The position numbers were made by a program, and so were the translations under genes. The notes below the pieces were generated by a model, which was not told the origin of the DNA, searched no databases, and was given only the letters and a program-made list of their open reading frames with translations. This document shows positions 3,535 to 56,046 of a stretch of 64,000 bases of DNA, in pieces (position 1 is the first letter of the stretch; each line of letters opens with the position of its first letter). The DNA lies in the NCBI GenBank assembly GCA_951406725.2, contig OX597825.1, forward strand, positions 45,384,001-45,448,000, written 5' to 3'. The DNA comes from Octopus vulgaris (taxonomy: Eukaryota).

Positions 3535-4990
3535 GAGAGAAGGGGTGTTGAGCCTATGTGGCAAAAATGAGCAAAGAGAGAAGATTAATTCCTGTTCACG
3601 GTGAAGGTGGGAGTCTAGATGGCCCTGTGCAAAAATAGTCTGAACACAGACAGATGTTGTAGTGAATGACCAGAAGAGCACAAATGGCATGAGACCAGGG
3701 TGTCATTGCCAAGTCTGATGTCTCAGAGATGATCCGTGAACCGGTCAGCCAAGCAGCATCCCATTTGACTGATGTACAGGGAAGGGCAGAAAGAGCAGGC
3801 GATGCAGTAAATTACATTACTAGAAGTGCAGGTAAAAGAGTCAGTGATGTGATAGAGACAATGATTGGTGCCTGTGGGGATGGTGGTGTTGGAGAGGTAG
3901 GATCAGGTGTGACAGCATGGGCAGGAGCAAGGGAACAAGCCAGGCTGGGAAGTGAGGTTAGGGAAGAAACTGTGGACCAGGTCACACAGGTTATGGTCTC
4001 GTTTGAAGGAGGGGAGGGGTAAGTTGGGGCAAATGTGCGAGGTGGAGGGGTTGGACTGGAGTCATCAGAAGGCTCAGAGAATGGTGCATTTGAGGGGCAG
4101 GCTGGAGGGATGGTAGGTGAGGGGAAACAGGAGACGGGCAACAGGTGGATGGGTGCAGGGAGAAAGAGCAGAGGTACTGTCCTTGGAACATGCCCTGGCA
4201 ACGGCAGTGTGGATAGTGGTGAGGGGATATCCACATAGGATGAAGTAGCAAGCCATCAATTGAAGTGATCAGTGCTAGTGTATGTGAAGTGATGTGGGGT
4301 GGTGTCATGACTAAGTCATGGTTGTCACTGTAGAGCTTGAGCAAATGGAGGAATTGGGAGTAGGAGATGGAGAGCTTGGCGTGGATAGGGTGAGAGGAGG
4401 AAAAGTTGAGGTTGGAGTGTGAGTCAGTGCGTTTATAGTGGATGGAGGTAGTGAGAGCGGAGTGGTGTATACTGACAGAAATGTCAAGAAATTCAATGGA
4501 AGAGTTAGAAATAGTGCAGGAGAATTTGAGGTCAGGATGGAAGGATTAGACAAAAGAGAAGAAGGAGTCTAGTGTTCACGGCAGAGTGAGGTCACACCAA
4601 TACAGTCATCGATATAACAACCATATAGTTCGGGAGTGGGACCAGTGAATTGTGAGAATATTTGGTTCTCAATGTAGCCAACATAGTTGGGGCCCATTCT
4701 TGTTCCCATGGCCACTACTGAGAACAGTTGATAAAAATGCCCCAGGAATGAGAAGCAGTTGAGAGAGAAAACAAGTTCAAACAGACGAAGAAGTGTGGAA
4801 GTGTCAGCTTGGTGGGGCCAGGTCAAAGGTCCAGAAAGTGTTTCAGTGCAAGAAGTCCTTTATTATGTGGAATCACCATATATAAACTCTTCATATCAAG
4901 AGTGAAGAGAAGTTTAGAGGGACAAGAAGGGAAGGAGAAAGAGTTAAAGAGATGGAGAGCATGGTTAGTGTTGTGGATGTGAGAGGGGGA
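3535..4990 (-). mobile_element. Penelope-like element remnant (RT plus GIY-YIG endonuclease)
   Basis: NCFSF.GHFYQ..VAMGTRMGPNY...YIDD RT motifs at 4569-4826. NVIYCIACSFCPSLYISQMG GIY-YIG motif at about 3760-3820. Frameshifted. Confidence 0.88.
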
Positions 4991-5560: not shown

Positions 5561-5736
5561 AGAGTGCATCTGCATCTGAGTGATAATCCCAGGAGGAGGA
5601 AGAAGAAGAAGAAGAAGAAGAATCGAAAAATGACAACCCAGGAAGAGAGTGGGGAGACAGAGACAGACAGAAGTAGAGAGGGGGGAAAGGAGGAGGAGGA
5701 TCGAAAAATGACAACTCAGGTTGGAAATTCCCCCAA

Positions 5737-5782
5737 GACACCTGATGAAGGTTGGAGGGTATATCAGCCGAAACATTGTGTT
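5737..5782 (+). ncRNA. Minimal type-I hammerhead ribozyme motif (stem III G>A change)
   Basis: GACAC-CUGAUGA-A-GGUUG(10 nt loop)CAGCC-GAA-ACAU-U-GUGUU. Same family as 27019-27064. Confidence 0.7.
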
Positions 5783-5843
5783 AACAACAAACAAGATGTG
5801 GACAAATATCCATCAAATGTAAATAATGTATTCTATCTCTACT

Positions 5844-6000: not shown

Positions 6001-6854
6001 TGTTGGGGAGCTATCTGGACATAGAAATTAAAACAGATGGACACATTAGTTTAATTTTACCTGAAACCTCCAAGAAGGTAAGGAGATAGACAAAGAACAT
6101 GCTGTCTTCACTTCAACTTAGAAGCTGCTAAGGTATCAGGAAGAAAGACTTGTTTCAGATCTAGCTTGTCACTGTTTTATGGGGTCAATTTTAATTTACA
6201 GTCTAGTTTATCAAATCTTTGTATATCTAAGGCCGAAAGAACAACGAGCAGTGTCTGTTAGGAAGGGGGCTGAGGGAGTCAACAGAAATCATAGATAAAT
6301 ATTTTAAACAATATTGCCATATTGTATAAAGTTAAAATTTAGGGTTATTCAGAAGATTATTAAGAAGAATATTTTCCTCCCTCTATTGTGGTAAAAGTTT
6401 AGTATATACTCATAAGTATTCAAAAAACTTTTTATCCTTTTGTTATAATATTCTTTATACAATATGGCAATATTGTTTAAAATATTTAACTATAGTACCC
6501 CATGATAAAATTTCCTGTTTCATTATCAATGGTCTACTAGTGGCTTGCCCCTTTAATTGTCAGCTAACATCTTGATTTAAGATTTCCTTTATCAAATCTC
6601 ATTATATTGCTTCAAATTAATCTTGATAGTAATATTAATATTTCTAAGTCTCTCTAAAGAAGACTACGGCAGCGGTACTGGATATTAATAGTTATCGCCA
6701 AGTTAACATGGCAGTCCAGAAAAACAGGACGAATGCTGCCAATGATTAGCTCCAAGAGGCCATCACCTCTAGCTAGCTATGTAACACACGAACCTGTGTC
6801 CATTATAACCTTCGAACAGGGGAGGTCAGCCGCTTCCCCTTGCCGGCCTGGCAA

Positions 6855-6895
6855 CTACAGATTAGTTTCAGGGTATTTGCCCCTTATCAATGTAG
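6855..6895 (-). ncRNA. Hammerhead ribozyme motif with UUGAUAA (U3:A8) core
   Basis: CUACA-UUGAUAA-GGGG CAAAUA CCCU-GAA-ACUAAU-C-UGUAG. Inverted copy of 7182-7224 with one stem III mismatch. Confidence 0.6.
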
Positions 6896-7181
6896 AGCAG
6901 CCGAACCAGCCAGGTATCGCTACTGACCGTCTGTTCGAGGACTACATAGCTAGCTAGAGGTGATGGCCTCTTGGAGCTAATCAATGACAGCATTCATCCC
7001 ATTTTCCTGGACTGCCATGTTAGCTTGGCGATAACTATTAATATCCAGTACCACAGCTGTAGTCTCCTTTAGAGAGACTTAGAAATATTAATATTTCTAT
7101 TTTTGAAAACCAGTGGATGTATTCCACTGAATTTAGCCCTCAAACAGACGGTCAATAACGACACCTGCTTGGTTCAGTTGC

Positions 7182-12273: not shown

Positions 12274-12592
12274 AAGACACACACACACAGATAGATACAT
12301 ATGTGTATATATATATATTTAATTTATATTTATGGATTTATGGGTTACCCTTCTCTTTTTCTTATTAATATTACCTAACGTATTTATTTACCTGAAATAT
12401 GTTCTTAATTCCACATATATTATTAATTTATCAGATATATGTTCTTAATCCCACATATATTATGTAAAATACTCTTTGGTTTAATTCTTTATTATTTATC
12501 TCATATCTTAATCTGTATTGATAATAATATTTTTATTTAACAAAATTTAATGTATTATTAGTACATCCTTTCAATAGCATATTTATTATTTG

Positions 12593-13404
12593 GGATCTTT
12601 TCCTTTTGAACGGCAGTTTTCAACACAATTTCTAGTTAACTAAACACTTTTAAACTTCGTATACTGGTAGAATGTTTATAAAACATCTTTTTTTCTTGGC
12701 TTTATTGAGAAAATTCTATATGTTGTAACATATTTCGACTTTAATTTCGAGCATTTCGGCAATTTTAACCGCTGACCTCCCTTTGGGGTGAAAACATTCC
12801 GTGCTGTATGAATATGTCCCTCGTTTAAGAAACAGATTGGGTTTATTTACATTTGCGAAGAAAAAAAGATACCCTTCCCCCACCCCTAACCATAACTCTA
12901 AACCTAACTCTAAAATAGATTGAAATGCAATAGATCAATACTAGGGTTATAATTATGGGTGACAATTTCATTTGACACCGCTAGAAAAAAATCCCATTTT
13001 CCGTAGCGGTGTCGTATGAAATTGTCACCCATAATTATAACCCTAGTATCGATCTATTGCATTTCAATATATTTTAGGGTTAGGGTTATGGTTATGGTTA
13101 GGGGTGGGGGTGGGAGAAGGGTATCTTTTTTTCTTCGCAGATGTAAATAAACCCAATCTGTTTCTTAAACGAGGGACATATTCATACAGCACGGAATGTT
13201 GTTTACGTCAATGGAGGTCAGCGATTGGTCAAAATTGGCTAAATGCTCGAAATTAAAGTCGAAATATGCTACAAGATATAGAATTTTCTCAATAAAGCCA
13301 AGAAAAAAATGTTTTATAAACACATTCTACCAGTATACGAAGTTTAAAAGAGTTTAGTTAACTAGAATTTGTGTTGAAAACTGCCGTTCAAAAGGAAAAG
13401 ATCC
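12593..13404. mobile_element. Foldback/MITE DNA element, almost entirely one about 400-bp inverted repeat
   Basis: Termini GGATCTTTTCCTTTTGAACGGCAG / CTGCCGTTCAAAAGGAAAAGATCC. Flanks ATTATTTG / ATTCTTTG. Internal CCCTAA/TTAGGG-like tracts. Second copy at 46072. Confidence 0.9.
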
Positions 13405-14135
13405 ATTCTTTGTTAGGTTTAAGGTTAACTCTTTTATTTCATTTTATTTATTTAACTTATTGTTTCGTCTATTTATAATCTTTGTATAAAATTACATTTT
13501 GCATATACGTTGATCTACCTAATTAAATGCATGTTAAGTCGTATGACATACTCTAGTTAGCTTATGATAATTTAGAACTTTTGGTAAATCTCATATTATC
13601 TCCCCTTAACTGTTTTGCACAGTGTTCTACGATTCATGCTTATATATACAAAAAAGAATGGCGGAGTTTATGAACTGGCTTCATTGCGTTGTTTCTGATG
13701 TATAATTATGCTTATTTCTCAATTAGTCTTATTATTTCGTATATAATACGTCTACTTATATACGAACTATATAGTTATGCTTATACCTATTTCTTTCCCC
13801 CCACTAATTATAAGCGTTAGACTCCTCATACACATGCAGGTACATTCTCTCTCTTAATCCTGATTTATCATTAACTTTTTTATTTATCCTCACTTGCTTT
13901 TATTCATTTATTTTATATTTTATATTATATTTTGTACTATAATGTGACACATTAATAACATATTGTGCCGATTCCTAATTCACCACGTAAATACACGAAT
14001 ATATAAATTACCATTACCTAAAATTACATTTTCAGATATGCCCTATTTTAAAATTTGTTCCGGGTTTGCTGTCTTTTTTCCCTACATCTCTGCGATATAT
14101 AAAGGCATTTTATGAAATTCAATGTTATTCATTTT

Positions 14136-15904: not shown

Positions 15905-16456
15905 TAAAAAATAATTTCAAACTTCGGACACTGGTAGTATGTGTCATATAAAGTATCTTTTACTCTTAGCGTTTTTGAGAAAAGCTTATATTTAGGAAGT
16001 TATTTCACGTTAAAGTTCTCGTATTTCAGTAATTTCAACCAATCAATGACGTGTATTCAGCTGAAAAAAATTACTGCCGTTGTTTGTCAGCAACAACTAT
16101 CGGCGGTGTATTTTTCATTTGTCACTGTTATTTATGATATCGTTCGTGCGTTTGTACTGGTTTTAGCTTTAAGGTTAGGGTTGTCATAAATAACAGTGAC
16201 AAATGAAATATACACCGCCGGAAGTTCTTGTTGACAAATAACAGTAGTAATTTTATTCAGCTGAATACACGTCATTGGTTGAAATTACCAAAATACGAGA
16301 ACTTTAACGTGAAATAACTTCCTAAACATAAGCTCTTCTCAAAAACGTTATTATAAAAGATATTTTATATGATACATTCTACCAGTGTCTGAAGTTTGAA
16401 AGTGTTTAGTTACAAAAAATTATTTTTTAAATATGTCAGTCAAAAGGTAAAGATCT
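15905..16456. mobile_element. Foldback element related to the 12593/46072 family, left end missing
   Basis: 15905-16140 is inverted relative to 16183-16430. Shares the AAACTTCG..ACTGGTAG motif and the AAAAGG.AAAGATC end. Confidence 0.75.
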
Positions 16457-26686: not shown

Positions 26687-26965
26687 CTATATATATATAT
26701 ATATATACATACAGCCACACCTATATATATATATACATACATTTTTTTGTTTTCATGAATTGCCTGTTTATATATTTTTGTGTATGTATATGTAAGTATA
26801 AGTACATATGTGTAGGTACCCTCTCTACCAGTCAGTGTTGGGGTTTATTTCTCACTCATGTCACCATTTTTTTTTTTCGCTTCTCAGTAAACAATTCACT
26901 TTATTTAAAGAGCTGGTTTCTAACCTAGATCCAAGGCTCCTTCATTGGGATTTCAATGACATCTA

Positions 26966-27351
26966 CAGTGTACATTATTTACATTCGATGGATATTTGTC
27001 CTTATCTTGTTTGTTGTTAACACAACGTTTCGGCTGATATACCCTCCAGCCTTCTTCAGGTGTCTTGGGGAAATTTCGAACCTGGGTTCGAATTCCTAAG
27101 GTATTTTTCGATGTTATTATTATTATTATTGTTCAGGTCACTGCTTGGAATTGAACTCAGTAGCTTGGAGTTAGTGCCATATGCCCATGGGCAATTATGG
27201 AGTGAATTTTAGGGCTTATAAATCTAATATTTTTCTATCCTTCCTTAATATTGGTTCCCATATCTGCACTTGGTCTGCTTAGGAGGACAAATATCCATCA
27301 AATGTAAATAAGGTATATAATTCCTCATCTCTTAAATATAGAACTGTATCT
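26966..27351 (-). mobile_element. Short inserted element: tRNA-like head, (AAT)n linker and hammerhead tail
   Basis: Absent from the paralogous site at about 30000-30015. ATCTA is duplicated at its ends. B-box-like GAGTTCAATTCC on the minus strand at about 27146-27157. A 27-bp inverted repeat (26976 / 27282) lies near the ends. Confidence 0.7.
27019..27064 (-). ncRNA. Minimal type-I hammerhead ribozyme with intact core
   Basis: GACAC-CUGAAGA-A-GGCUG(GAGGGUAUAU)CAGCC-GAA-ACGU-U-GUGUU. Palindromic ACGU stem III, GUU triplet, one extra A after A9. Confidence 0.82.
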
Positions 27352-28063
27352 ACGGGGTATTTTTGCGTATATGTGTGCAATATTTGGAGTCAGTGCATGC
27401 GCAGATATTTTGATGTTTTGTCTTGCATATACATATAGATTTATATGTCAAAACATACATATATATACTTAATGGTAAACTTCTAGAAATTTTAGAGATT
27501 TATACAGATTTTTACAGTTCCAGTGATGGCTTGGGTCTGTAGTTTTCAAATCAGCTTCCTCCTTTCTGGTTGTGAGAAGCCTAATTTCTCAAGATTGGTG
27601 CTTAAGCAGTGTGTTCACATATCTCACTGCCCCAATAATTACAAATATAAACCTGAATTCATAATCCAGGTAGAGTTACAGTAGACTTTTCAATAGTTCA
27701 GTGTAGGTATTTGCTTTTTACTGATCTTTAGCTTTATATTAACATTCACTGGGTAGCTGATGTCCACTACTGTGCATAGTTTCTCTTCTCTGTCCCAAAT
27801 CACTATGTCTGGTCTATTATATTTAAATTTTATTAAGGTTTTCACTGGAACAGTCCACCAGTACCCCTTTTTATTATGGGTAGCTACCATACTATGGATT
27901 CTTATTTCTTTATCCTTTCAATGGATCTCATTATAAAGTGTTTTGGCTACATCATATCTCATCAGTAGATAATACCGTGATGACATGTATATATGTATGT
28001 CATTATTCAGTTTTATTTCAAGATTTCTTGTCAACAGAGAAAGAGCCAGTTTCTAACCTAGAT

Positions 28064-29971
28064 CAGGCACGTAACTACGGCGGGGCTATGGGGTGCTCAG
28101 CACCCCCAGTTAGAATCTCAGCCCCTCCACCCCAGTATGAGAATTTGTTTTATCCACTTTTGAAATAATACATTGTGGCCACCTTTTTTTTTTCTCATAA
28201 GCAATATCTGAAGTTGCTAAAGATGCAATAAATTGAATTTCTTTTGTTAGTGATATGAAAATGTGGGTAAACTGGTTAAAGTGTTTGTTGTAGCTGTAAT
28301 TGTCATCGCAGAATTGGCTGCTGACCCAGTCATCAACTGTGGGTTGAATTAAGGAGTGGGTGATGCTGGATCAGTTGTTGTTGTTGTGGTGTTCGTGGTG
28401 GCGATGGCAGTGCTGATGATTGTCCTTGTTGCTGTTGAAAAGTATGTGAAGAATTGTTGCTGTAGTTAGAGATTTATGGTAATAAATGCATCACTACACA
28501 CATATATATATGAACAGAGATGGACATTAAAAAGTCATTTTATTTCCACTACTCAGAGAGGATTATTATTCACAAAAAAGGAAAGAAAAGTTTTGAAATT
28601 TCCCAAAATATACATCTTTGAACAAAGTTTATACTGAAATTATTTTGTGCTTAACTAAAAAAGCATAACTTTGAAGAAATTGAAAAAAAAAATTGCTTGA
28701 ACTGAAATCTCTTTCGAGTTTAATTTAAAAATACATAAATTTTAAGAAATTGTTACTCTTAACTATGATATTCTATCTTAGAATTAATTATTGCAAATAT
28801 CGGTGCCCAAAAATAATGAATCACTATTGAAAAAGAAAACTGAAGCAATCATTGCTGAATTTCCAATCTGATTCATCTAATAATGCTAAACAGAAGAGAA
28901 TTGCAAACAAAGTTTCGCAGTTCAAGAGAGGTCTTGCAAAGTCTTTGATACCCTCATTGGATGATCTAGGACAGGTCGACTGCCAACCAGTGCAGCCAGT
29001 TCTAGCAAAGTTTGATCTAAAAATTTATGAAAATCAGAGACGTGACTTCTCGTCAAGTTGGTATACTGGTCATTTATGGTTAGAGTATTCTCTTTCAAAG
29101 AAAGCCTTGTTTTGTTTTGCTTGTCAGCACTTTTATACTTCTGCTCAAGCTGATACTTGTTTTATTAAAAATGGATATTCTAATTGGCATCATGCAAAAG
29201 AAAAAAACAAAGGTTTAAATATGCACACAAACTCTGCATCCCATATCCAAGCTATGGTAACATGGAAGGAACGCCAACAGCATTTATCCACAATAACATC
29301 CATGTCTTCAATCTTGCAAAATGTTCAGTTGAGCAAAAACCGTTATTATATCAGTTCCATTGTTGATATTGTTCATTTTCTTTGTGCAAACGAATTGCCT
29401 TTTCGAGGAAGCGAAAATGAAGCTTTTCAGGATCTTTATTCAGAAAATGATACGTAGCCTTGTGATCTTTTTATGAAATTATTCCAGTACACATTAGAGA
29501 AAGACTCAAAGCTAATGGAATGTTACAGCACGATTCCAAAAAATGCGACCTATACCTTAGCAGCAATGCAAAACAAAATCATTGAATTGTTGAGAAGACA
29601 CACTGTATATAAAAATAATGTTAAAGATTTGGCTGTTATCTCTAGCATGTAGAAAGACCTTTTAGGCTTAACTATGTGCTTGTTGAAAATCATTTTTAAA
29701 ATATTGGAATCGATACATTCGACTAAAAATTCTTCGAGGTGATGCCACAGCATGGCCTCAGTTTAATGATTGCAACAAGTAAAATGAAAATAAAAACGAA
29801 ATATATCAGAAGTTTTGACCAGGTTAGGCGTCAAGAAATGTGAAAAAAAAATGAAAAAATAGCCGAAAAATATAAGCATGGGGCCTTTGTCCACTTTCAC
29901 ACTTTAAGTAGGAGCTTTTGTCCATACCCCTGTTCAGCACCCCCAGTTGCAATCGGCTGGCTACATGGCTG
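28064..29971 (+). mobile_element. hAT transposon (ZMYM1/TTF-zinc-finger type), internally deleted
   Basis: Perfect 8-bp TSD ACCTAGAT. Imperfect CAG..CTG TIRs. ORF 28852-29457 has RDFSSSWY...WLEYS...FCFAC...H and LPFRG motifs. Confidence 0.92.
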
Positions 29972-30600
29972 ACCTAGATCCAAAGCTCCTTCATTGGAAC
30001 TTCAACATCAACGGGGTATTTTTGTATGTATGTGTGCAGATTTGTATGCTTTGTCTTATGTAAATATTCTCATGCATATAGTTGCATACCTAGACATTCA
30101 TATATATATACTTAAATGATAAACTTCTGAAAAGTTTTACAGATTTTTACAGTTCCATTGATGGATTGGATCTGTAGTCTTTGAATCAGCTTTCTCCTTT
30201 CTGGTTTTGGGAAGACATTCCATCAGTACTCCTTTTTGTAGCTATGGCTTCCACCATATTGTGGGTTCTTATTTCTTTGTCCTCGGGGTAATCATTCTGA
30301 CAGATCTTGTTATACAGTGCCCTAACTACAACATCATGTCCCATCAGTAGATAATACTGTAATGACATTTTCAGACAATTGCTTAAGATATGGGTAATAT
30401 CTTTGGTGTTAACTGCACAAAGTCTGCATCAGTTGTCACATTTTGCTGCTTTTCCTGCATCTCTGTCCCTTTTGTGCATCAGGTATTTGATATTTCCTGA
30501 TCCTGAATTGCAAACACATACCCTTCAAAGTAGGAAGTAGTAATCTGGTTGTTGGTCCATGATAGATTGCTTTGTTGATCAATGTTACTATCATCTCAGA
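29972..30600 (-). mobile_element. Second R4/NeSL-like non-LTR remnant (host of the hAT; left part at 28030-28063)
   Basis: CRLC...DITHILSNC...HDVV CCHC-type motif. The 3' region matches 26900-26960 and 27352-27570. Confidence 0.7.
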
Positions 30601-31485: not shown

Positions 31486-31519
31486 ATAATATTCTCTTCT
31501 TCTATGGAAGGAAGAGTAT

Positions 31520-33520
31520 ACTGTAGTTGATTTCTTGAATGTTATCTTAGATTTGAGTACAAGTAGGTACCAACCATTCTATAAACCCAGTGACAACCTC
31601 AAGTATATCAATTTTAACAGTCATCACTCCAAAAGTATAAGGAAATCTATAGTCAATAATATTTCTACTCGCATCTCTAGATTATCTGTGATTGAAGAGA
31701 TCTTTAGAAAAAAGAAAAAAATTTTTAAAAATGTGTATATGAATGAAACTGGGATGAATATAAATATAAATGGAAGGCAGAACAGTAGTTAATGAGACAG
31801 GGAATAGTAGTAGTAACTAAAAAAAAAAAATTTTTAACAACCAACCGCAAAGTGGGCAACTTAAGCAATAATAATAATAATGTCAAACCCGCTAAAGAAA
31901 ATATAGTTAAACTCCCTAGCAAAAATTATAGCATAAGCAACAATTGACCAGGTATCAGAAATAGGAACGACCCCCTCAGAAATAAGAAAATACTGAATAT
32001 GGGTAATGCAAACAAGAATAATAATATCAACCCCAGGGGTAAACACTGCAGTAGAAAGAATTGCTCTCACAAGATAATATATAATATAATGAAATTATTG
32101 CATACAGTGCTCAGGTGCACCACAACTTGTCAAAAAGTGCGTATAAAGTATATGCAGTAATGTACAAATGTCTGGAAAGCGAACAGTGTTTGAGTCAGAT
32201 ACATGCTTGCATGTGTATGGAGGGGGAGAAAGTCAGGTGTAGTGTTGGCGAATCTCAAGAAGCATGGAAGTTTTGAAGGATGCAGTGCTCCGACAACTAA
32301 CAACTGATGCCGGCAGTCTGTTCCATGTTTCAGCAACTCTTAGTGTGAAAAAATGTTTCCGAAAGTCATGGGAGCTGTGCTGTTTTCTGACTTTGTAAAC
32401 ATGTCCACGGGTGTTATACAGGTGGAGTTTGAAAAGGTGCTCAGAGTTATTGTTTGTAAGATGGTTAATAATTTTATAGGTGTCTGCCAAGTCAGCTGCC
32501 AGACGTCGGAGTTTCAATGTGTCCATGCCCAGGGAAGTAAGGCGTTCAGATTAGACCAACTACTAATAATAATAGAACTAATAAATCAAGGGCTACATTG
32601 TGGTATAATGCAATTCCAGGTAAATTTTTCGCTACTATAGATAAACATTTTCGTAAATTGGATATATACCATAAAATCTTTAATAGACACATTATCAGAT
32701 AGGTCTTTTCTGCCATCAAAAACTTAGCACAAATTATATTAGAATACTAGAGACAGCAATAAAGTAGTTAGTAGAAATGATAGTAATAGTACTCTTAATG
32801 ATAACAACCATGAACATATAGCCAGCCTGAAAGGATCTTGAACGCCACAATTACAAACAATCACAAGGAAACAAACACGCAAGAGAAAGCAGGTAATGGA
32901 AGGGAGACAACTGTTACATTTCTTAGAGAAACTAGACCAGGTACAGTAAATCGCTAGACATAATAACATGGGGACCCAAGACAATAACCAGAATGTGAAC
33001 AATAGTAGATCAATAGATACAGAAACAATAAGCGTATTTAACTCTGGTCCAATTAACATAGGTAGGATTAGAAAGAAAAAAAATCTTTCATTGTGGAAAA
33101 AAAATTGTTTGCCTTAACTACTGAATGTATAAGGAAAAATTTAGTAAACCAATGTAAGATTCCTTCAGAAAGATATTCACACTTCTATATTGGTACATGC
33201 CTGATAAACTTCAAGGCAAGACTGTCAAACCATTTAATTTCATTTAAGGATAGCAAGAAAATGCATAACACTAGCTTGAGTGCATTCATCTGGTCAGTTA
33301 AAAACAAGAAAACTAGCTTCAATATACAATGGGGAAAAATTGCCATAGATATGTACCTTATATAACAGGAGGAAAAAGATGGAACTTACGAATAGAGGAA
33401 ATACTCTATATTTTTACATCTAAACACCAATTGCCTAACAGTAGACAGGAACAAACCTTAAGATAATTGCACCTACATAGGAGAACTTTTAAATACTTTC
33501 ATGCAAGGACTGTATGAGTT
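31520..33520 (+). mobile_element. Penelope-like element remnant (RT thumb plus GIY-YIG), interrupted by a CR1 fragment
   Basis: FLNVILDL...YQPFYKP...YINFNSHH...RISRLS (thumb) and FYIGTC..FKARLSNH..SF...TSLS..IW (GIY-YIG). Confidence 0.8.
32075..32550 (-). mobile_element. CR1/L2-clade LINE 3' fragment
   Basis: LRRLAADL..TYKI...TRGH..K...RKHFFTLRV..WNRLP..VV....FK, the CR1 ORF2 C-terminus, followed by a 3' UTR and AT-rich tail. Confidence 0.88.
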
Positions 33521-38107: not shown

Positions 38108-40839
38108 CAGTGATTCCCAACCTTTTTATAGTCGCGACCCACTATTTATCACACCAGTTTATGACGACCCACTTAACTCTCCTGAGTAAAAACATTAATG
38201 AAATTAACAAATTTATTTCAGCTTACATCTTCAGTGAGGCCTGTGAGAAGGATGAGCCTGTTTCTTGCTACGCTCAATAATAGAATTAACATCAGGTTCA
38301 ATGTGTGATAGTTTCAGGCGTAAAGAATTTGAGAGCTGCAGTTTATTTCGATATTTGCTTTTAATCCCAACCATTGCTGAAAATCCAGCTTCACAAATAT
38401 AAAATGACGTGAAAGGGAGAAGTACTTTTAATGCTTCAGTGGAAATGATTGGGTACGAGGTTTGAAGAGCCGCCCAGAACTGTACCAATTTTCGGGTGTT
38501 AAAAATCATTTTCAAGGAAGAGTCTTCAGATAAATCCTCATCGGCTTTTGTTGATATTCCAGTCGTCACGTCAGGCTGAAAGGAGTTCATAATCCATCTT
38601 TTCTGTTGCATAGTATTCATTTCTTTATGAAAATAAAATTCAAAACTCTCATTTAACTTATTCAAGTGTTCAGATATCTCAATGATTATACCATCATCAA
38701 CTTTTGCTTTATTCTCCATTACAAAAGTTTCAAAACAGTCATAATTTCGGTTGTTAATACGATTTTTCCACAAGACAAGTTTTTTCATAAAACCTCGAAT
38801 TTTCTCTTGAATTGCAAATATACTGATACCTTCTGTTCCTTGTAAATACAAATTCAGGTTGTTTAATTTCGAAAAAATATCTGCCAAATATGTAAGCCTC
38901 AAAACAAATTATTCGTCGCGCAAATATTTCGCAAAATCGCTTTTATCTTCTAAAAATATAGCTACTTCTTTGTGGAGTTCTGCAAGTCTTGTTAACACTT
39001 TTCCCCTAGAGAGCCATCGTAATTCTGTGTGCAAAAGAAGTGATTTATGATCGCTTCCCATCTCTTCGCAGAACTTCTCAAATAGGTGCGATTTCAAAGG
39101 CTTTGACTTAATAAAGTTCACTATTTTGACTGAAGTATTCAAAACATTTTCAAAATTATCAGATATATGTTTTGATATTAACGCTGCCCTGTGAAGGTTA
39201 CAGTGAGTCCATGATGCATTGGGATTAAGCTCAAGTATTCTGGTCACCACACCATTTCTACTGCACATAGCCCGTGCGCCGTCTGTACATATTCTGACAC
39301 ATTTATGCCAATCAAGATTTTTTGCTCTAATATAAGTATCAACTGTATTAAAAATTTCATCGCTGGTACTTCGACTGACAGGTTCACAGAACAACATATC
39401 TTCATGAGGTACAAAGTTCCATATGTAACGTACAAAAACAAGTAGCTGGCACAAACCTTGTACGTCAGTAGATTCATCGAGTTGTAAAGAAAAAAAAAGA
39501 CTTCCACAAATCCGTTCAATAACTTGATTTTCTACCCATTGAGACATTTCATCGATTCTACGCGTGACTGTGTTATTAGAAATAGGAATTGATTCAATTT
39601 CTTGTTCACTCTTATCACCAAAGAAAACTTTAACTGTATCTTTTATAGCTGGAAGAACTAAAGTCTCCCCAATTGTGTGTGGCTTACCAGTTTTTGCAAT
39701 TCTTAAACTGATCAAGTAAGACACATACAGAGATTTTTCATTTACTTTGGTGTAATGTTGCATAACGCTCTGTCCTATCTTTAACTTGGTTAACATTCAC
39801 TCAAAAAAATCGAGAGGCTTGTCTTTTAAGAGGTGCTTAGTCTCAAAATGACAATGCAATTTGTTTGGATGCATGCTTGTTTGGACATTTGCAAGTTGTT
39901 CATAACAAATGATGCATCGTGGTTGTGGATCTTCTTCAACTCCATTCCATGTAAATCCCATTTTTAAGTACTCATAATCATACTTTCTTAATACTTTTCT
40001 TCACTTTGACTGGCTTAGTTTTGATTGATTGGTCTTTTCTTTGTTTCGATTCACTGAAGACTTATCGTCATCAGCTTCAACTGACTTTTTTAACCATTTA
40101 TTCATAATATGAAGGACTGAGTAAATACGAAAAAATCGAATTTAGAAGGACAGATAATTTTGACTTAGCGAGAGATTTGACAGAATTAAAATACAACGTT
40201 TGGGATCATGCGAACTTCTACAATTAATGATAAACGTCATTTCAATCGATGTGATGCTATTTAAACCGTTTATCTGATAGACTCTATTGATCTATCTACC
40301 GTCTAGCTGCTGTCTATTCCAATCATTTCATAGGATAACCTCCTGGTGATCACTCCTATACTTTTTAAATAATTTATTAACTTACTAGTGAAATCCATGT
40401 CTTATTTATTTAAATTTTTTGCTATTTATATATTAAATGTGAAACAAAACGTTTTATAACTGTTTCAACGTCTCTATACCCTATGTATAAATACTAACAC
40501 TAATACAAAACCTTGAAGTAGTAACTGTTATCGGCTCGATCAGTGTTATACTTCGCCTAGTTAAAGTTCTCTATAAATAGGTAAAAACAGACCTTTCCTT
40601 TTTACGATTACGTACAAATAAATAACTTGAGAAAATGACAACCTCTGATTTGTTAAGTTCATGAAAAAGCCTATTGCTTGATAAAACAACAAGTCTGGTA
40701 TTGAAAACATAAGTCTTGAACTATCTCGATAGACAGCAGTTAATCAAAGCTAATGCGTAATTTTATAACTTTTTGCGACCCACTAAGATTCCGTTCGCGA
40801 CCCATCTGTGGGTCGCGACTCATAGTTTGGGAACCACTG
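38108..40839 (-). mobile_element. Full-length hAT transposon of the Buster/Charlie type
   Basis: TIRs CAGTGATTCCCAA / TTGGGAACCACTG. Perfect 8-bp TSD GAGTACAG with central TA. Confidence 0.96.
38231..40105 (-). pseudogene. Buster/Charlie hAT transposase (BED finger, DDE, dimerisation domain), disrupted
   Basis: FSLQLDESTD, CTDGA, HCNLH, RWLSRG and YICEAGFS motifs, split by stops and frameshifts into three pieces. Confidence 0.92.
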
Positions 40840-45210: not shown

Positions 45211-46071
45211 GTATTTGGCGCTAGCAGACAGTAAGTGGCACCTTAAAAAGTGGTCTGACTGGATTAAGAGGAAGTCGAAGGTGAAGACAATGCTAAGTTA
45301 TTTGAAAGTGATTAAGCAGTTTTTTCAGGGTTGTTTAACTCTGACTGAATGCCTTGCCCATATCTTTTGTATATACAGGAAGAGTACATTGTCCTATATG
45401 CCCTTTCGTTGAGGGAAATTTGACTGCTATTCCTAGCTAGTCAATTGCCTACATGAAAGACTCTCTCATTGGTTTGAGATCTGTGAAATTGAAGAAACAG
45501 GACTGTTAATAATGTCTAGACTTCTGGGTGTACATTAGAGCAATGTTTTTTATCAGAGCAGGGAGCTGTAACATTTAAGGAGGAATGGAGAAATTGCTAT
45601 GTTAAATTAAAATGGTTTTAACCTTTAAACTTATTCATTACTATGCACAAAACAGTATTATATTGGTTGCAAACTCGTTTTATTTTCTCATTAATAAAGA
45701 AGCAAAGGTAGGAAAATTTTGCTAATATTTGATGGGGACAGCTAGTATTTATTATTTTGAGAATCATTGAATCAGAGGTTTGCTATATGTGCAGTTGGTG
45801 AAAATATGTCCCCACTCTCTCAGTATGTAACAGTCATCATCTGTCGCAAATGCTTGGAGAAAAAGGACAGTGGCTATCAGGCTCATTGACCAGCTGTTTG
45901 GTGGTTTGAACGACTGAGAATCCTTAGATTTGGTTTTGAATCTAAGCTTGGAGAAGGAAGTGTTAATTTTTACAAGTGCATATGTCAATGGCTTATGATC
46001 TGAAAAATTGTAAAATGTTGCCCTACTAAAAAATGTTGAAAAAGTTTCAGAACTAAATAAGCAGCTAAGAG

Positions 46072-46918
46072 GGATCTTTTCCTTTTGAACAGCAGTTTGT
46101 AACATAATTTCTAGGTAACTAAAAAATTTTAAACTTCGTATACTGGTAGAATGTGTTTATAAAACATCATTTTCTCTTGGCTTTATTGAGAAAATTCTAT
46201 AGATTGTAACATATTTGGTCTTTAATTTCTTGCATTTCAGCAATTTTAACCAATCACTAGCGTCCATTTAGGTAAATAACATTCTGTGCATAATGAATAT
46301 GTCCCTCCTTTAAGAAACAGATTGGGTTTATTTACATTTGTGAAGAAAAAAGATACCCGTCTCCCACCCCTAACCCTAACTAACCCTAACTCACCCTAAC
46401 TCTAACCCTAAATCTAAAATAGATTGAAATGCAATAGATCGATACTAGGTTATAATTATGGGTGACAATTTCATACAACACCGCTATAAAAAACTTAGTG
46501 GTGTCATATGAAATTGTCACCCATAATTATAACCCTAGTATCGATCTACTGCATTTCAATCTATTTTAGATTTAGGGTTAGAGTTAGGGTGAGTTAGGGT
46601 TAGTTAGGGTTAGGGTTAGGGGTGAGAGAAGGGTATCTTTTTTCTTCACAAATGTAAATAAACCCAATCTATTTCTTAAAGGAGGGACATATTCATTATG
46701 CACAGAATATTATTTACATCAATGGAGGTAATTGATTGGTTAAAATTGCCAAAATGCAAGAAATTTTAGACAAAATATGTTACAACCTAGAGAATTTTCT
46801 CGAATAAAGCCAAGAGAAAATGATGTTTTATAAACACATTCTACCAGTATACGAAGTTTTAAATTTTTTTGTTACCTAGAAATTATGTTGCAAACTGCCG
46901 TTCAAAAGGAAAAGATCC
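46072..46918. mobile_element. Foldback/MITE element, second copy
   Basis: Same GGATCTTTTCC...GGAAAAGATCC termini, about 420-bp arms and TTAGGG tracts. Flanks GCTAAGAG / ACTAAGAG. Confidence 0.92.
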
Positions 46919-48349
46919 ACTAAGAGTTCTTTTACAAAGCTGCTGTATCTATCGTTTCTGCTGGTTTTAAATGTTTGGAAGGTGAAAAAAAAAAAAAAGA
47001 AAATGGTGTAGGAGATCGCTTTCCTCTGCTCAGCTGAGATTCAAAACCAAATCCACACACCAGTTGCTTTTCAGACAAATGTTTGATCCTTTGTGTCTTA
47101 TGTCTATGCTGGAAGATATGTGGTCGTGGAACTGTCAATCCTTTGTTTTAGGTTTGACCTACTTCCTGGCTAAACCTTATATAACCAAATGAGGTCTTCG
47201 CTTCTTTCTCTTTGGTTTTCAGCCAGCTAGCGAGAGTATCTTTTGGCTGAATGGGAAAGGTCAATGCAATTCTTACCTTTCTTCCTCTCAGACAGCAGAC
47301 TGTTAACTTGGCTTCCATATCCTACTTCTGACACTCACTAAGAGCTTGCAAACAGCACACATTGTTGTCATTGTCACTTACTACAATTACTGCTTTGTTT
47401 GTGTCACAGACCACTGCTGGCAAATAATGTCTGTGGATATAATTCTTTTCTCTTCGATGTTATTATAGTTTCATCCTACTTTTGACCATCTACATATAGC
47501 TACCCTGATGCAGAACAAGAAATGCTATTTCTACATCAAGTAACTTCTCATTTGTACACTACAATTGATGACTCCAGCGTAAATCCACATCAGTATGTTA
47601 CAGTGGTTGCCAAGCATTTTGAACAAATCAATGCAATTCCACTCTGATTCCAATGCCAGATGCATCTACCATCAATGATAATGGCGCATTTGGGATCAGG
47701 TAGGCTAAAAGTGAAGCTTTAGTTAACTTGTCTTTGATATCCTCGAAAAATTGCAGTTCAGCCAAATTTAATGATATTTCATTAATTTTTTAAACAACGT
47801 AATAATTCATTTAGAGGAAAAATTGTTTCAGTACAGGGTGGAATAAATTTTCTGTAGAAGTTAATAAGGCCAAGAAATTCTCATAACTTCCTTAACGAAG
47901 CAGGAACTGGAATATCAAGAATAACATCAACTTTTTCTTTTAAAGGACTAATTCCATTTTTATTAATGACATGTCCCAAAAATGTGATGGAAGAAACACC
48001 AAATAGACATTTATTGGGATTAACTATTACACCAAATCGAGTAAAAAGTTATTCCAAATGAAGAAAATATTACTCCTCTGTAGTGCTAGTAATTAATAAG
48101 TCGTCAATGTAGGAAAAAACAAAATCTAAAAAGTGAATGACTTCATCAATAAACCTTTGGAAGATATTAGCAGCATTAATTGAGAAGATTGCTTATCGGC
48201 TAAGAAATTTGAAAAGTCCAAAAGCTGTTGTAGCTGTTTTAGGAATGTCAGCTGATTTAATTGGAATTTGGTTGTAGGTATGTACTAAATAAAACTTCGA
48301 AAAGACTGTGCTGTAAAAAAGCTGAAAAGTCATAAATATGTGGAATAGG

Positions 48350-53460: not shown

Positions 53461-53667
53461 GTAGCGATGATTTGAAAGCTAACTGCTAGATAATCAGTCA
53501 GACTTCATGAGTGGACCACCATAGTTTTACATGATTGGTCTATTAACTACCAATCAGTTTGAAGTGATGGCATGGACAGGTTTTCTCAAACATTCTGGAA
53601 TTCTACTTCTGGTCCTCCTATAAAATCCATCTGGCACGTATTTTTACCAACCAGATAACACAGAAAG

Positions 53668-56046
53668 GCAGATGACACAGATAGATGACAGGAACTAAGA
53701 CAGATGGCACAGATAGATTACAGGAACTAAGACGGATGGCACAGATAGATGACAGGAACTAAGACAGATGGCACAGATAGATGACAGGAACTAAGACGGA
53801 TGGCACAGATAGATGACAGGAACTAAGACGGATGGCACAGATAGATGACAGGAACTAAGACGGATGGCACAGATAGATGACAGGAACTAAGACAGATGGC
53901 ACAGATAGATGACAGGAACTAAGACGGATGGCACAGATAGATGACAGGAACTAAGACAGATGGCACAGATAGATGACAGGAACTAAGACAGATGGCACAG
54001 ATAGATGACAGGAACTAAGACGGATGGCACAGATAGATGACAGGAACTAAGACGGATGGCACAGATAGATGACAGGAACTAAGACAGATGGCACAGATAG
54101 ATGACAGGAACTAAGACGGATGGCACAGATAGATGACAGGAACTAAGACGGATGGCACAGATAGATGACAGGAACTAAGACGGATGGCACAGATAGATGA
54201 CAGGAACTAAGACGGATGGCACAGATAGATGACAGGAACTAAGACAGATGGCACAGATAGATGACAGGAACTAAGACAGATGGCACAGATAGATGACAGG
54301 AACTAAGACGGATGGCACAGATAGATGACAGGAACTAAGACAGATGGCACAGATAGATGACAGGAACTAAGACGGATGGCACAGATAGATGACAGGAACT
54401 AAGACATGGCACAGATAGATGACAGGAACTAAGACGGATGGCACAGATAGATGACAGGAACTAAGACAGATGGCACAGATAGATGACAGGAACTAAGACG
54501 GATGGCACAGATAGATGTCAGGAACTAAGACGGATGGCACAGATAGATGACAGGAACTAAGACAGATGGCACAGATAGATGACAGGAACTAAGACAGATG
54601 GCACAGATAGATGACAGGAACTAAGACGGATGGCACAGATAGATGACAGGAACTAAGACGGATGGCACAGATAGATGACAGGAACTAAGACAGATGGCAC
54701 AGATAGATGACAGGAACTAAGACAGATGGCACAGATAGATGACAGGAACTAAGACAGATGACAGGAACTAAGACAGATGGCACAGATAGATGACAGGAAC
54801 TAAGACAGATGGCACAGATAGATGACAGGAACTAAGACGGATGGCACAGATAGATGACAGGAACTAAGACGGATGGCACAGATAGATGACAGGAACTAAG
54901 ACAGATGGCACAGATAGACGACAGGAACTAAGACGGATGGCACAGATAGACGACAGGAACTAAGACGGATGGCACAGATAGATGACAGGAACTAAGACGG
55001 ATGGCACAGATAGATGACAGGAACTAAGACGGATGGCACAGATAGATGACAGGAACTAAGACGGATGGCACAGATAGATGACAGGAACTAAGACAGATGG
55101 CACAGATAGATGACAGGAACTAAGACAGATGGCACAGATAGATGACAGGAACTAAGACGATGGCACAGATAGATGACAGGAACTAAGACAGATGGCACAG
55201 ATAGATGACAGGAACTAAGACGGATGGCACAGATAGATGACAGGAACTAAGACATGGCACAGATAGATGACAGGAACTAAGACGGATGGCACAGATAGAT
55301 GACAGGAACTAAGACAGATGGCACAGATAGATGACAGGAACTAAGACGGATGGCACAGATAGATGACAGGAACTAAGACGGATGGCACAGATAGATGACA
55401 GGAACTAAGACGGATGGCACAGATAGATGACAGGAACTAAGACGGATGGCACAGATAGATGACAGGAACTAAGACAGATGGCACAGATAGATGACAGGAA
55501 CTAAGACAGATGGCACAGATAGATGACAGGAACTAAGACGGATGGCACAGATAGATGACAGGAACTAAGACGGATGGCACAGATAGATGACAGGAACTAA
55601 GACAGATGGCACAGATAGATGACAGGAACTAAGACAGATGGCACAGATAGATGACAGGAACTAAGACAGATGGCACAGATGGATGACAGGAACTAAGACA
55701 GATGGCACAGATAGATGACAGAAACTAAGACAGATGGCACAGATAGATGACAGGAACTAAGACGGATGGCACAGATAGATGACAGGAACTAAGACAGATG
55801 GCACAGATAGATGACAGGAACTAAGACGGATGGCACAGATAGATGACAGGAACTAAGACAGATGGCACAGATAGATGACAGGAACTAAGACGGATGGCAC
55901 AGATAGATGACAGGAACTAAGACGGATGGCACAGATAGACGACAGGAACTAAGACGGATGGCACAGATAGATGACAGGAACTAAGACAGATGGCACAGAT
56001 AGATGACAGGAACTAAGACGGATGGCACAGATAGATGACAGGAACT
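53668..56046. repeat. 32-bp minisatellite, roughly 74 units
   Basis: Unit GATGGCACAGATAGATGACAGGAACTAAGAC(A/G), head-to-tail with no spacers. Confidence 0.98.

Follow-up and report, generated by a model that had tools for sequence, protein, structure and literature searches.

The window analyzed here is a 64,000-nt stretch of the Octopus vulgaris genome (contig OX597825.1, positions 45,384,001 to 45,448,000), and it carries a 381-bp insert at 26967-27347 that is probably a 5'-truncated insertion of a Penelope-like element (PLE), composed of a pseudo-LTR and an inverted arm, in which the pseudo-LTR has captured a tRNA-derived module. The insert is a real copy of an abundant, dispersed high-copy family. 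Its membership in PLEs rests on four features that it displays, namely a hammerhead of the PLE type, a tail, an inverted arm, and a target-site duplication (TSD). Truncated PLE insertions are in themselves ordinary, and the sole unusual feature of this one is the likely tRNA-derived segment in its terminal repeat.

Insertion site and family ends

Four of 24 listed public runs were used to place reads and contigs on the window. Twenty of the 24 contain the insert stretch or part of it, nine contain at least half of its words, and the runs containing the stretch bear five organism labels and include one metagenome of small share; X20, an insect metagenome (share 0.06), was left out. X23 and X24 are RNA read sets from one study, about 6% of each was covered, and 9356 and 7750 reads, respectively, were placed. 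The two DNA contig sets gave 31,502 and 45,203 placed records. Depth in the contig sets is no measure of copy number, and in the RNA sets it reflects host transcripts. The results below draw on the best 40 of 189 variants, 15 of 258 joints, 24 of 1662 loose ends, and 16 of 77,452 pieces.

An earlier reading made from the sequence alone (the sequence-only reading) had described an insert of about 385 bp that is absent from a paralogue at about 30005 and bounded by ATCTA duplicates. The alignment of the flanks bears this out, with the insert proper measuring 381 bp between two 6-bp ATCTAC duplicates on the plus strand (26961-26966 and 27348-27353). The flanks align to 29969-30005 and 30011-30037 of the paralogous empty site (29969-30037, plus strand), and the insert is absent there. 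The empty paralogue reads ATCAAC where the duplicates read ATCTAC, and most host-repeat reads also have A at 26964 (7/7 in X23 and 22/22 in X24). Both duplicates thus share a private T, which favors a true TSD, and a short TSD is a feature of EN+ PLEs. The left flank (26907-26956) is itself a piece of a high-copy repeat, and in the DNA contigs other copies of this repeat join the left and right flanks without the insert.

Family reads terminate at two alternative 3' ends, 26971/26972 and 27348/27349. Among the loose ends listed, the letters beyond 26971, 27348, and 27349 are mixed and AT-rich (agreement 0.39-0.50), as expected of dispersed insertions; the exception is 26972 in the RNA runs, where the flank agreement of 0.7-0.8 perhaps reflects one expressed locus. 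Read ends and depth delimit a main arm at 26969-27282 on the minus strand, likely the 5'-truncated PLE end (pseudo-LTR), with a tail-less 3' end at about 26971. At 26969, 541 reads of X23 and 395 of X24 run on into the tail, and the 30-base consensus of the letters past this position is the reverse complement of 27318-27347. The listed loose ends before 27283 carry on as element sequence. These continuations show that 27283-27347 is an inverted 3' end plus a 31-bp tail, joined head-to-head to the main arm. It comprises a further truncated plus-strand copy of the element 3' end (27283-27316), in which 27284-27315 match 26971-27002 at 30 of 32 bases, and the optional 31-bp tail (27317-27347, plus strand), which is absent at the 26971 end and in the second family copy of the window described below. 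The inverted repeat had been recognized from the sequence as a repeat of part of the AT-rich tail; the arm also holds 31 extra bp of family sequence.

Toward the 5' side of the main arm the X23 depth falls, from 4253 at 27007-27027 to 1569 at 27112-27132 and 540 at 27133-27153, and the second copy is truncated in this same region. Depth drops about threefold at 27259-27279. One contig piece of X1 crosses the inversion junction (27193-27320, with 18 differences and 7 gaps). In the parts of the literature available, PLE insertions have an optional 30-40-bp tail and an inverted truncated copy (PMC8557442, Figure 2 legend), a PLE tail of 31 bp is described (PMC3846280), and the tail of an anole PLE is the stretch between two internal start sites of reverse transcription (PMC11167929). 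The motifs of the insert family were not found among the supplementary PLE sequences of PMC8557442 that were available. A 20-base 3'-end motif had no matches in prokaryote contigs, and a single metagenome match shares nothing beyond those 20 bases and is attributed to chance.

Other repeats of the window were recorded alongside. The segment 6025-7691 is a complex inverted insertion with nested inverted and direct repeats of about 90% identity (6025-6294 versus 7691-7422, and 6626-6947 versus 7396-6943). Related long palindromic elements lie at 12592-13405, 46071-46919, and 15909-16407, and the copy at 46071-46919 has TTAGGG-like runs on both arms. A young tandem array at 53665-56046 consists of about 74 copies of a 32-bp unit with a strong A skew. 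On the minus strand, 38231-39796 holds two consecutive frames of 295 and 225 aa with one stop between them, which we take to resemble a hAT-type transposase.

Hammerhead motif and RNA evidence

The minus strand of the insert contains a minimal type I hammerhead motif at 27019-27064, with a predicted cut between 27024 and 27023. Read from 27064 to 27019, it consists of a 5-bp helix I, the core CUGAAGA, a single additional base, a 6-bp helix II, GAAA, the palindromic AACGUU, and the GUU cleavage triplet; the sequence-only reading had placed an intact hammerhead at these positions. A hammerhead descriptor matches the window twice, at 27059 (minus) and 5741 (plus). The same descriptor gives a mean of 0.015 matches in 200 shuffles, with at least one match in 3/200 and at least two in 0/200, and a simple chance motif was rejected on this control. 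Rfam returned no match for the hammerhead or the insert at the gathering score, and weak unrelated matches or none at E up to 10. The folding energy of the motif is by itself unremarkable (z -0.87). A 21-base hammerhead motif had no matches in viral, metagenome, or prokaryote contigs. The extra base before helix II, the long helix II, the short helix I, and the palindromic helix III match the minimal type of PLEs, for which the available text of PMC4209133 gives the same traits and also reports thousands of solo PLE hammerheads in animal genomes.

The reads show how the motif varies across the family. The free core position N7 differs in 2836 of 3318 X23 reads (85%) and is the listed majority change in the core. 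In addition, 28% of the reads are altered at position 15.2 and 9% lack three bases at 27025, which argues against a hammerhead that is intact throughout the family. The second family copy (5700-5830, plus strand) comprises the hammerhead and the 3' end, without the tRNA-like part and without the tail; 109 of its 118 bases are identical to 26971-27088, and it starts at a purine-rich microsatellite. At 5620-5720 (plus strand), the stretch just 5' of the hammerhead of this copy is present twice, about 80 bases apart, and each duplicate is preceded by a purine-rich microsatellite in place of (AAT)n.

The RNA reads of X23 and X24 are equal on both strands. In the roughly 6% of these two ordinary RNA-seq runs that was covered, neither the cleavage site nor any other place shows an accumulation of RNA ends. 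Ordinary libraries of this kind can miss circular RNAs. Neither a same-strand back-joint nor a head-to-tail tandem joint is found among the best 15 of 258 joint rows, and both window copies are solo (0/2 tandem), though a few tandems may exist elsewhere. Strand-equal reads that lack discrete ends are as for copies within host transcripts or for an unstranded library. The earlier suggestion of a retrozyme-like element was rejected because no tandem units are seen: the insert is a solo copy, and its inverted arm has no hammerhead. In the model, the dimer is not favored, with a predicted dimer helix of -22.3 kcal/mol versus -24.0 kcal/mol for two monomers. According to the parts of the papers available, the anole PLE likewise has no RNA ends at its cleavage site and its hammerhead needs protein (PMC11167929), and single minimal hammerheads failed to cleave in vitro (PMC4209133).

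The tRNA-like segment and coding traces

Upstream of the hammerhead lies a tRNA-like module (27136-27186, minus strand) that follows the class I register through positions 1-11 and then 34-73, with the D-arm and A-box half absent. In the tRNA numbering that we assume, 27186-27176 correspond to positions 1-11 and 27175-27136 to positions 34-73, and the spacing from 34 to 73 is exactly that of class I. The read majorities give G57 at 27152, a pyrimidine at 48 (27161), and a purine at 46 (27163); of the four majority changes listed for 27152-27169, three move toward the tRNA consensus. The T-stem pairs in just 2-3 of 5 positions even with the read majorities, and the acceptor stem is also poorly paired. 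ARAGORN and Rfam (E up to 10) found no tRNA in the head, and BLAST of the head against phage records gave no match. The B-box-like motif noted earlier is present, but it does not exceed chance (1 match versus 1.36 expected in the window), and a search for the A-box motif found none within the insert, in agreement with the earlier observation that this copy has no clear A box. The order of a tRNA-like segment 5' of a hammerhead is present in this copy, and a tRNA-derived origin of the segment, which neither Rfam nor ARAGORN scores, is likely from its register and read majorities. An (AAT)n microsatellite at 27114-27130 (minus strand), where depth also steps, is likely the tail of the captured module.

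The break at 27174-27176 is not common to the family; about 22 nt were probably deleted in this copy alone. The reads counted at 27174 number 6 in X23 and 2 in X24, versus 221 and 229 at 27169 and 508 and 309 at 27187, and this near-absence indicates a junction in the present copy that differs from that of the family. It has likely lost its A-box half privately, a loss that we infer from the counts, with the missing letters lying outside the rows listed. The head begins 96 nt inside the main arm. The depth ratios of bin 27175-27195 to bin 27154-27174 are 1.6, 1.1, 2.5, and 1.45, and this side of the break being as deep or deeper in all four runs shows that the head is not where the family begins. 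Five variants within 27192-27244 occur in about 35-40% of the X23 reads, 13-25% of the X24 reads, and less than 3% of the DNA contig depth; being linked, they likely mark one strongly transcribed copy or subfamily. When the linked-variant reads, about a third of those there, are set aside, the X23 ratio of upstream to downstream depth is still about 1. Since this copy is broken at 27175, read placement cannot show starts at tRNA position 1, and a minor head-initiated subfamily may exist. Among the best 16 of 77,452 pieces, no contig piece spans both head and hammerhead, the longest ending at 27136, and the family is presumed to be continuous across the break. A one-off chimera was rejected, both sides of the head being common to the family. 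The tRNA-like head of the sequence-only reading thus holds as to its motifs and gains from the read majorities, but its position at the 5' end of the element does not.

Coding traces lie on either side of the module on the minus strand. The stretch 27216-27285 is likely the 3' end of a PLE ORF, with 9 and 15 codons in two frames and a stop at 27218-27216. An 11-nt insertion behind 27258, which occurs in 33 of 481 X23 reads (7%), 9 of 272 X24 reads (3%), and no contig of the two DNA runs, would place the two pieces in one frame. The joined upstream frame resembles the C-terminus of a PLE endonuclease. Protein searches with the likely ORF end confirmed no relatives. Four long unrelated proteins that matched this query were dismissed as chance, three matching mainly in the inverted-arm part and one having no listed stretch. 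The plus-strand frame, used as a proxy query for other copies, found none in protein searches. The available alignment of PMC8557442 ends before the C-terminal stretch that a comparison of the ORF end needs.

On the other side, 26971-27093 is a stop-free frame of 41 codons that runs through the hammerhead into the tail and is likely an ORF start. The ATG at 27093 is found in 2081 of 2148 X23 reads (97%) and in the second copy, and the frame from 27093 is open through hammerhead and tail in 3/3 window pieces; the chance of such an open frame is about 0.1-0.2. A protein atlas search with the likely ORF start gave no usable match. The stop codon lies 29 nt 5' of the head and the start codon 93 nt past the first base of the head, and this succession of stop, untranslated part, start, hammerhead, and tail corresponds to the layout of a pseudo-LTR. 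PLE pseudo-LTRs include the ORF start in the available accounts (PMC11167929; PMC3846280), and the frame at 27093 is tentatively taken as the likely ORF start carried in the pseudo-LTR. The coding capacity of the insert amounts to about 24 codons of the likely ORF end and 41 of the likely start, and no RT or GIY-YIG domain was found in it.

Alternative explanations, mechanism, and relation to known elements

The order of head, (AAT)n, hammerhead, and PLE-type end is that expected of a stand-alone tRNA-headed SINE or retrozyme, which would start at the head, self-cleave, perhaps circularize, and move with borrowed PLE enzymes. The tRNA register and read majorities favor the tRNA origin that it needs, SM-alpha offers a precedent in the available descriptions, and starts at tRNA position 1 would be invisible in a copy broken at 27175. 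This was in essence the proposal of the sequence-only reading, which had inferred a non-coding Pol III element, and we now consider it improbable: the DNA 5' of the head is common to the family at equal or greater depth in 4/4 runs and resembles the end of an ORF, both copies in the window stand alone, the flanks past the 3' ends are mostly mixed, and neither an RNA-end pile-up nor a same-strand back-joint (among the best 15 of 258 rows) was found. We used the definition of tRNA-derived SINEs given in the available part of SINEBase (PMC3531059), which calls for a 5'-terminal head with an internal Pol III promoter, for transcription by Pol III, and for reverse transcription by a partner LINE. 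The head of the insert lies 96 nt inside with no A box in this copy, and the insert shows alternative ends and an inverted arm and no simple-repeat tail; it falls outside the definition because its head is not terminal. The link to PLEs in that reading is strengthened by the hammerhead type, tail, inverted arm, and TSD, but "borrowed" is too weak a term for what appears to be a PLE pseudo-LTR itself. At the other extreme, the insert could be a plain truncated PLE end that resembles a tRNA by chance, in keeping with the chance frequency of the B-box motif in the window, the absence of Rfam, ARAGORN, and BLAST matches, and the badly paired acceptor and T stems. However, the class I spacing of 34-73 is exact, positions 1-11 continue across a break that was placed independently by reads, and three of the four listed majority changes at 27152-27169 go toward the tRNA consensus, and we regard this as the least probable of the explanations.

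A short non-autonomous PLE derivative is a further alternative. Such an element would lack an ORF, measure a few hundred bases, always begin at about 27282, carry a tRNA-type Pol III promoter internally, and be mobilized in trans by PLE protein. The threefold depth drop at 27259-27279 is compatible with it, and the X1 contig piece over the inversion junction could point to a short unit that always starts near 27282 instead of being truncated at random. Non-autonomous PLEs are also known (available parts of PMC8557442; bioRxiv 10.64898/2026.07.22.740005), and a TTTT terminator is absent between head and tail, which is also likely by chance. The 11-nt indel at 27258 accounts for the depth drop as well, though; moreover, the 5' piece ends like an ORF, and an internal promoter would start RNA at the head, not 96 nt upstream. 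We judge this derivative to be quite unlikely.

Under the preferred reading, a 5'-truncated PLE insertion with a captured module, a PLE protein with RT and GIY-YIG endonuclease would nick AT-rich DNA within the host repeat. Reverse transcription would start at either of two internal RNA sites, one of which accounts for the end at 26971, which has no tail, and the other for the end at 27347, which has one. It would halt some 310 nt on, shortly after entering the ORF end. A second short copy would be added head-to-head, and repair would then duplicate 6 bp. The tRNA-like piece and (AAT)n would likely be a short SINE-type insert that became established between the stop and start codons of a master copy and was then carried along by the family, with the A-box half later lost from this copy. 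Cleavage by the hammerhead would require a dimer or the help of protein, as shown for other animal PLEs. It is also conceivable, if unlikely, that the module is a working Pol III promoter in the pseudo-LTR, the transcripts of which are copied by the PLE protein, with a PLE-dependent SINE budding off. In that case, head-to-tail transcripts of about 220-250 nt would hold the hammerhead and both start sites of reverse transcription.

Among known elements, the insert is closest to EN+ PLEs of the Penelope/Poseidon type. As described in the available parts of PMC4209133, PMC3846280, PMC8557442, and PMC11167929, they share with it a minimal hammerhead near the 3' end, a tail of about 31 bp, an inverted truncated head-to-head copy, a short TSD, 5' truncation, AT-rich flanks, an ORF start apparently within the repeat, and no RNA ends at the cleavage site. 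The insert differs from them in the tRNA-like segment and (AAT)n in the untranslated part of the repeat, and RT and endonuclease are not seen in it. The hammerhead listed for Hydra-1_Obim differs from that of the insert. In the annotation of Octopus vulgaris, PLEs account for 6.83% (supplement of PMC13282606). Elsewhere in the window, an open frame at 31490-31792 (plus strand) looks by eye like RT7/thumb of Hydra-clade PLEs and another at 3991-4545 (minus strand) like the RT of Neptune-clade PLEs, both by comparison with the part of the PMC8557442 alignment available; the former, which belongs to a different PLE family from the insert, has no significant Pfam match, and the latter has no Pfam match.

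In the schistosome elements SM-alpha and Sj-alpha, too, a type I hammerhead comes after a tRNA-related segment (as summarized in PMC2770079 and PMC6765202). SM-alpha is described as a unit of promoter and ribozyme that is often tandem, whereas the copies of the insert family seen here are solo, the head sits within a longer PLE-type end that includes a likely ORF remnant, and the hammerhead is of the minimal PLE type. Animal non-LTR retrozymes, as far as described in the available text of PMC7229834 and bioRxiv 10.64898/2026.07.22.740005, resemble the insert in their length of about 300 nt, low GC, type I hammerhead, and relation to PLEs, but have at least two tandem hammerhead units and circular RNAs, neither of which is seen for the insert. 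The closest analogy for a Pol III function is provided by the Helenus/Cassandra TRIMs, which have a small-RNA-derived Pol III-type module in the terminal repeat; these TRIMs (PMC10886601) are non-autonomous LTR elements that possess a PBS and a PPT and have no pseudo-LTR, tail, or inverted arm. Our literature search, which covered few subscription papers, found no account of this family and none of a PLE pseudo-LTR that contains a tRNA-like module. Repbase, Dfam, or the O. vulgaris library of PMC13282606 may already list the family or its donor SINE.

The two natural 3' ends of the family provide a second system for the internal-initiation model, which stands on in vitro work for the anole PLE. 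The tRNA-like module sits between the stop and start codons, the expected place for the promoter of a pseudo-LTR. Should the module work as a Pol III promoter, an autonomous PLE could give rise directly to a hammerhead SINE with a tRNA head, and a single high-copy family would allow tests of where SM-alpha-like elements come from and which partner they use. The family would then represent a living intermediate toward SM-alpha-like hammerhead SINEs and retrozymes.
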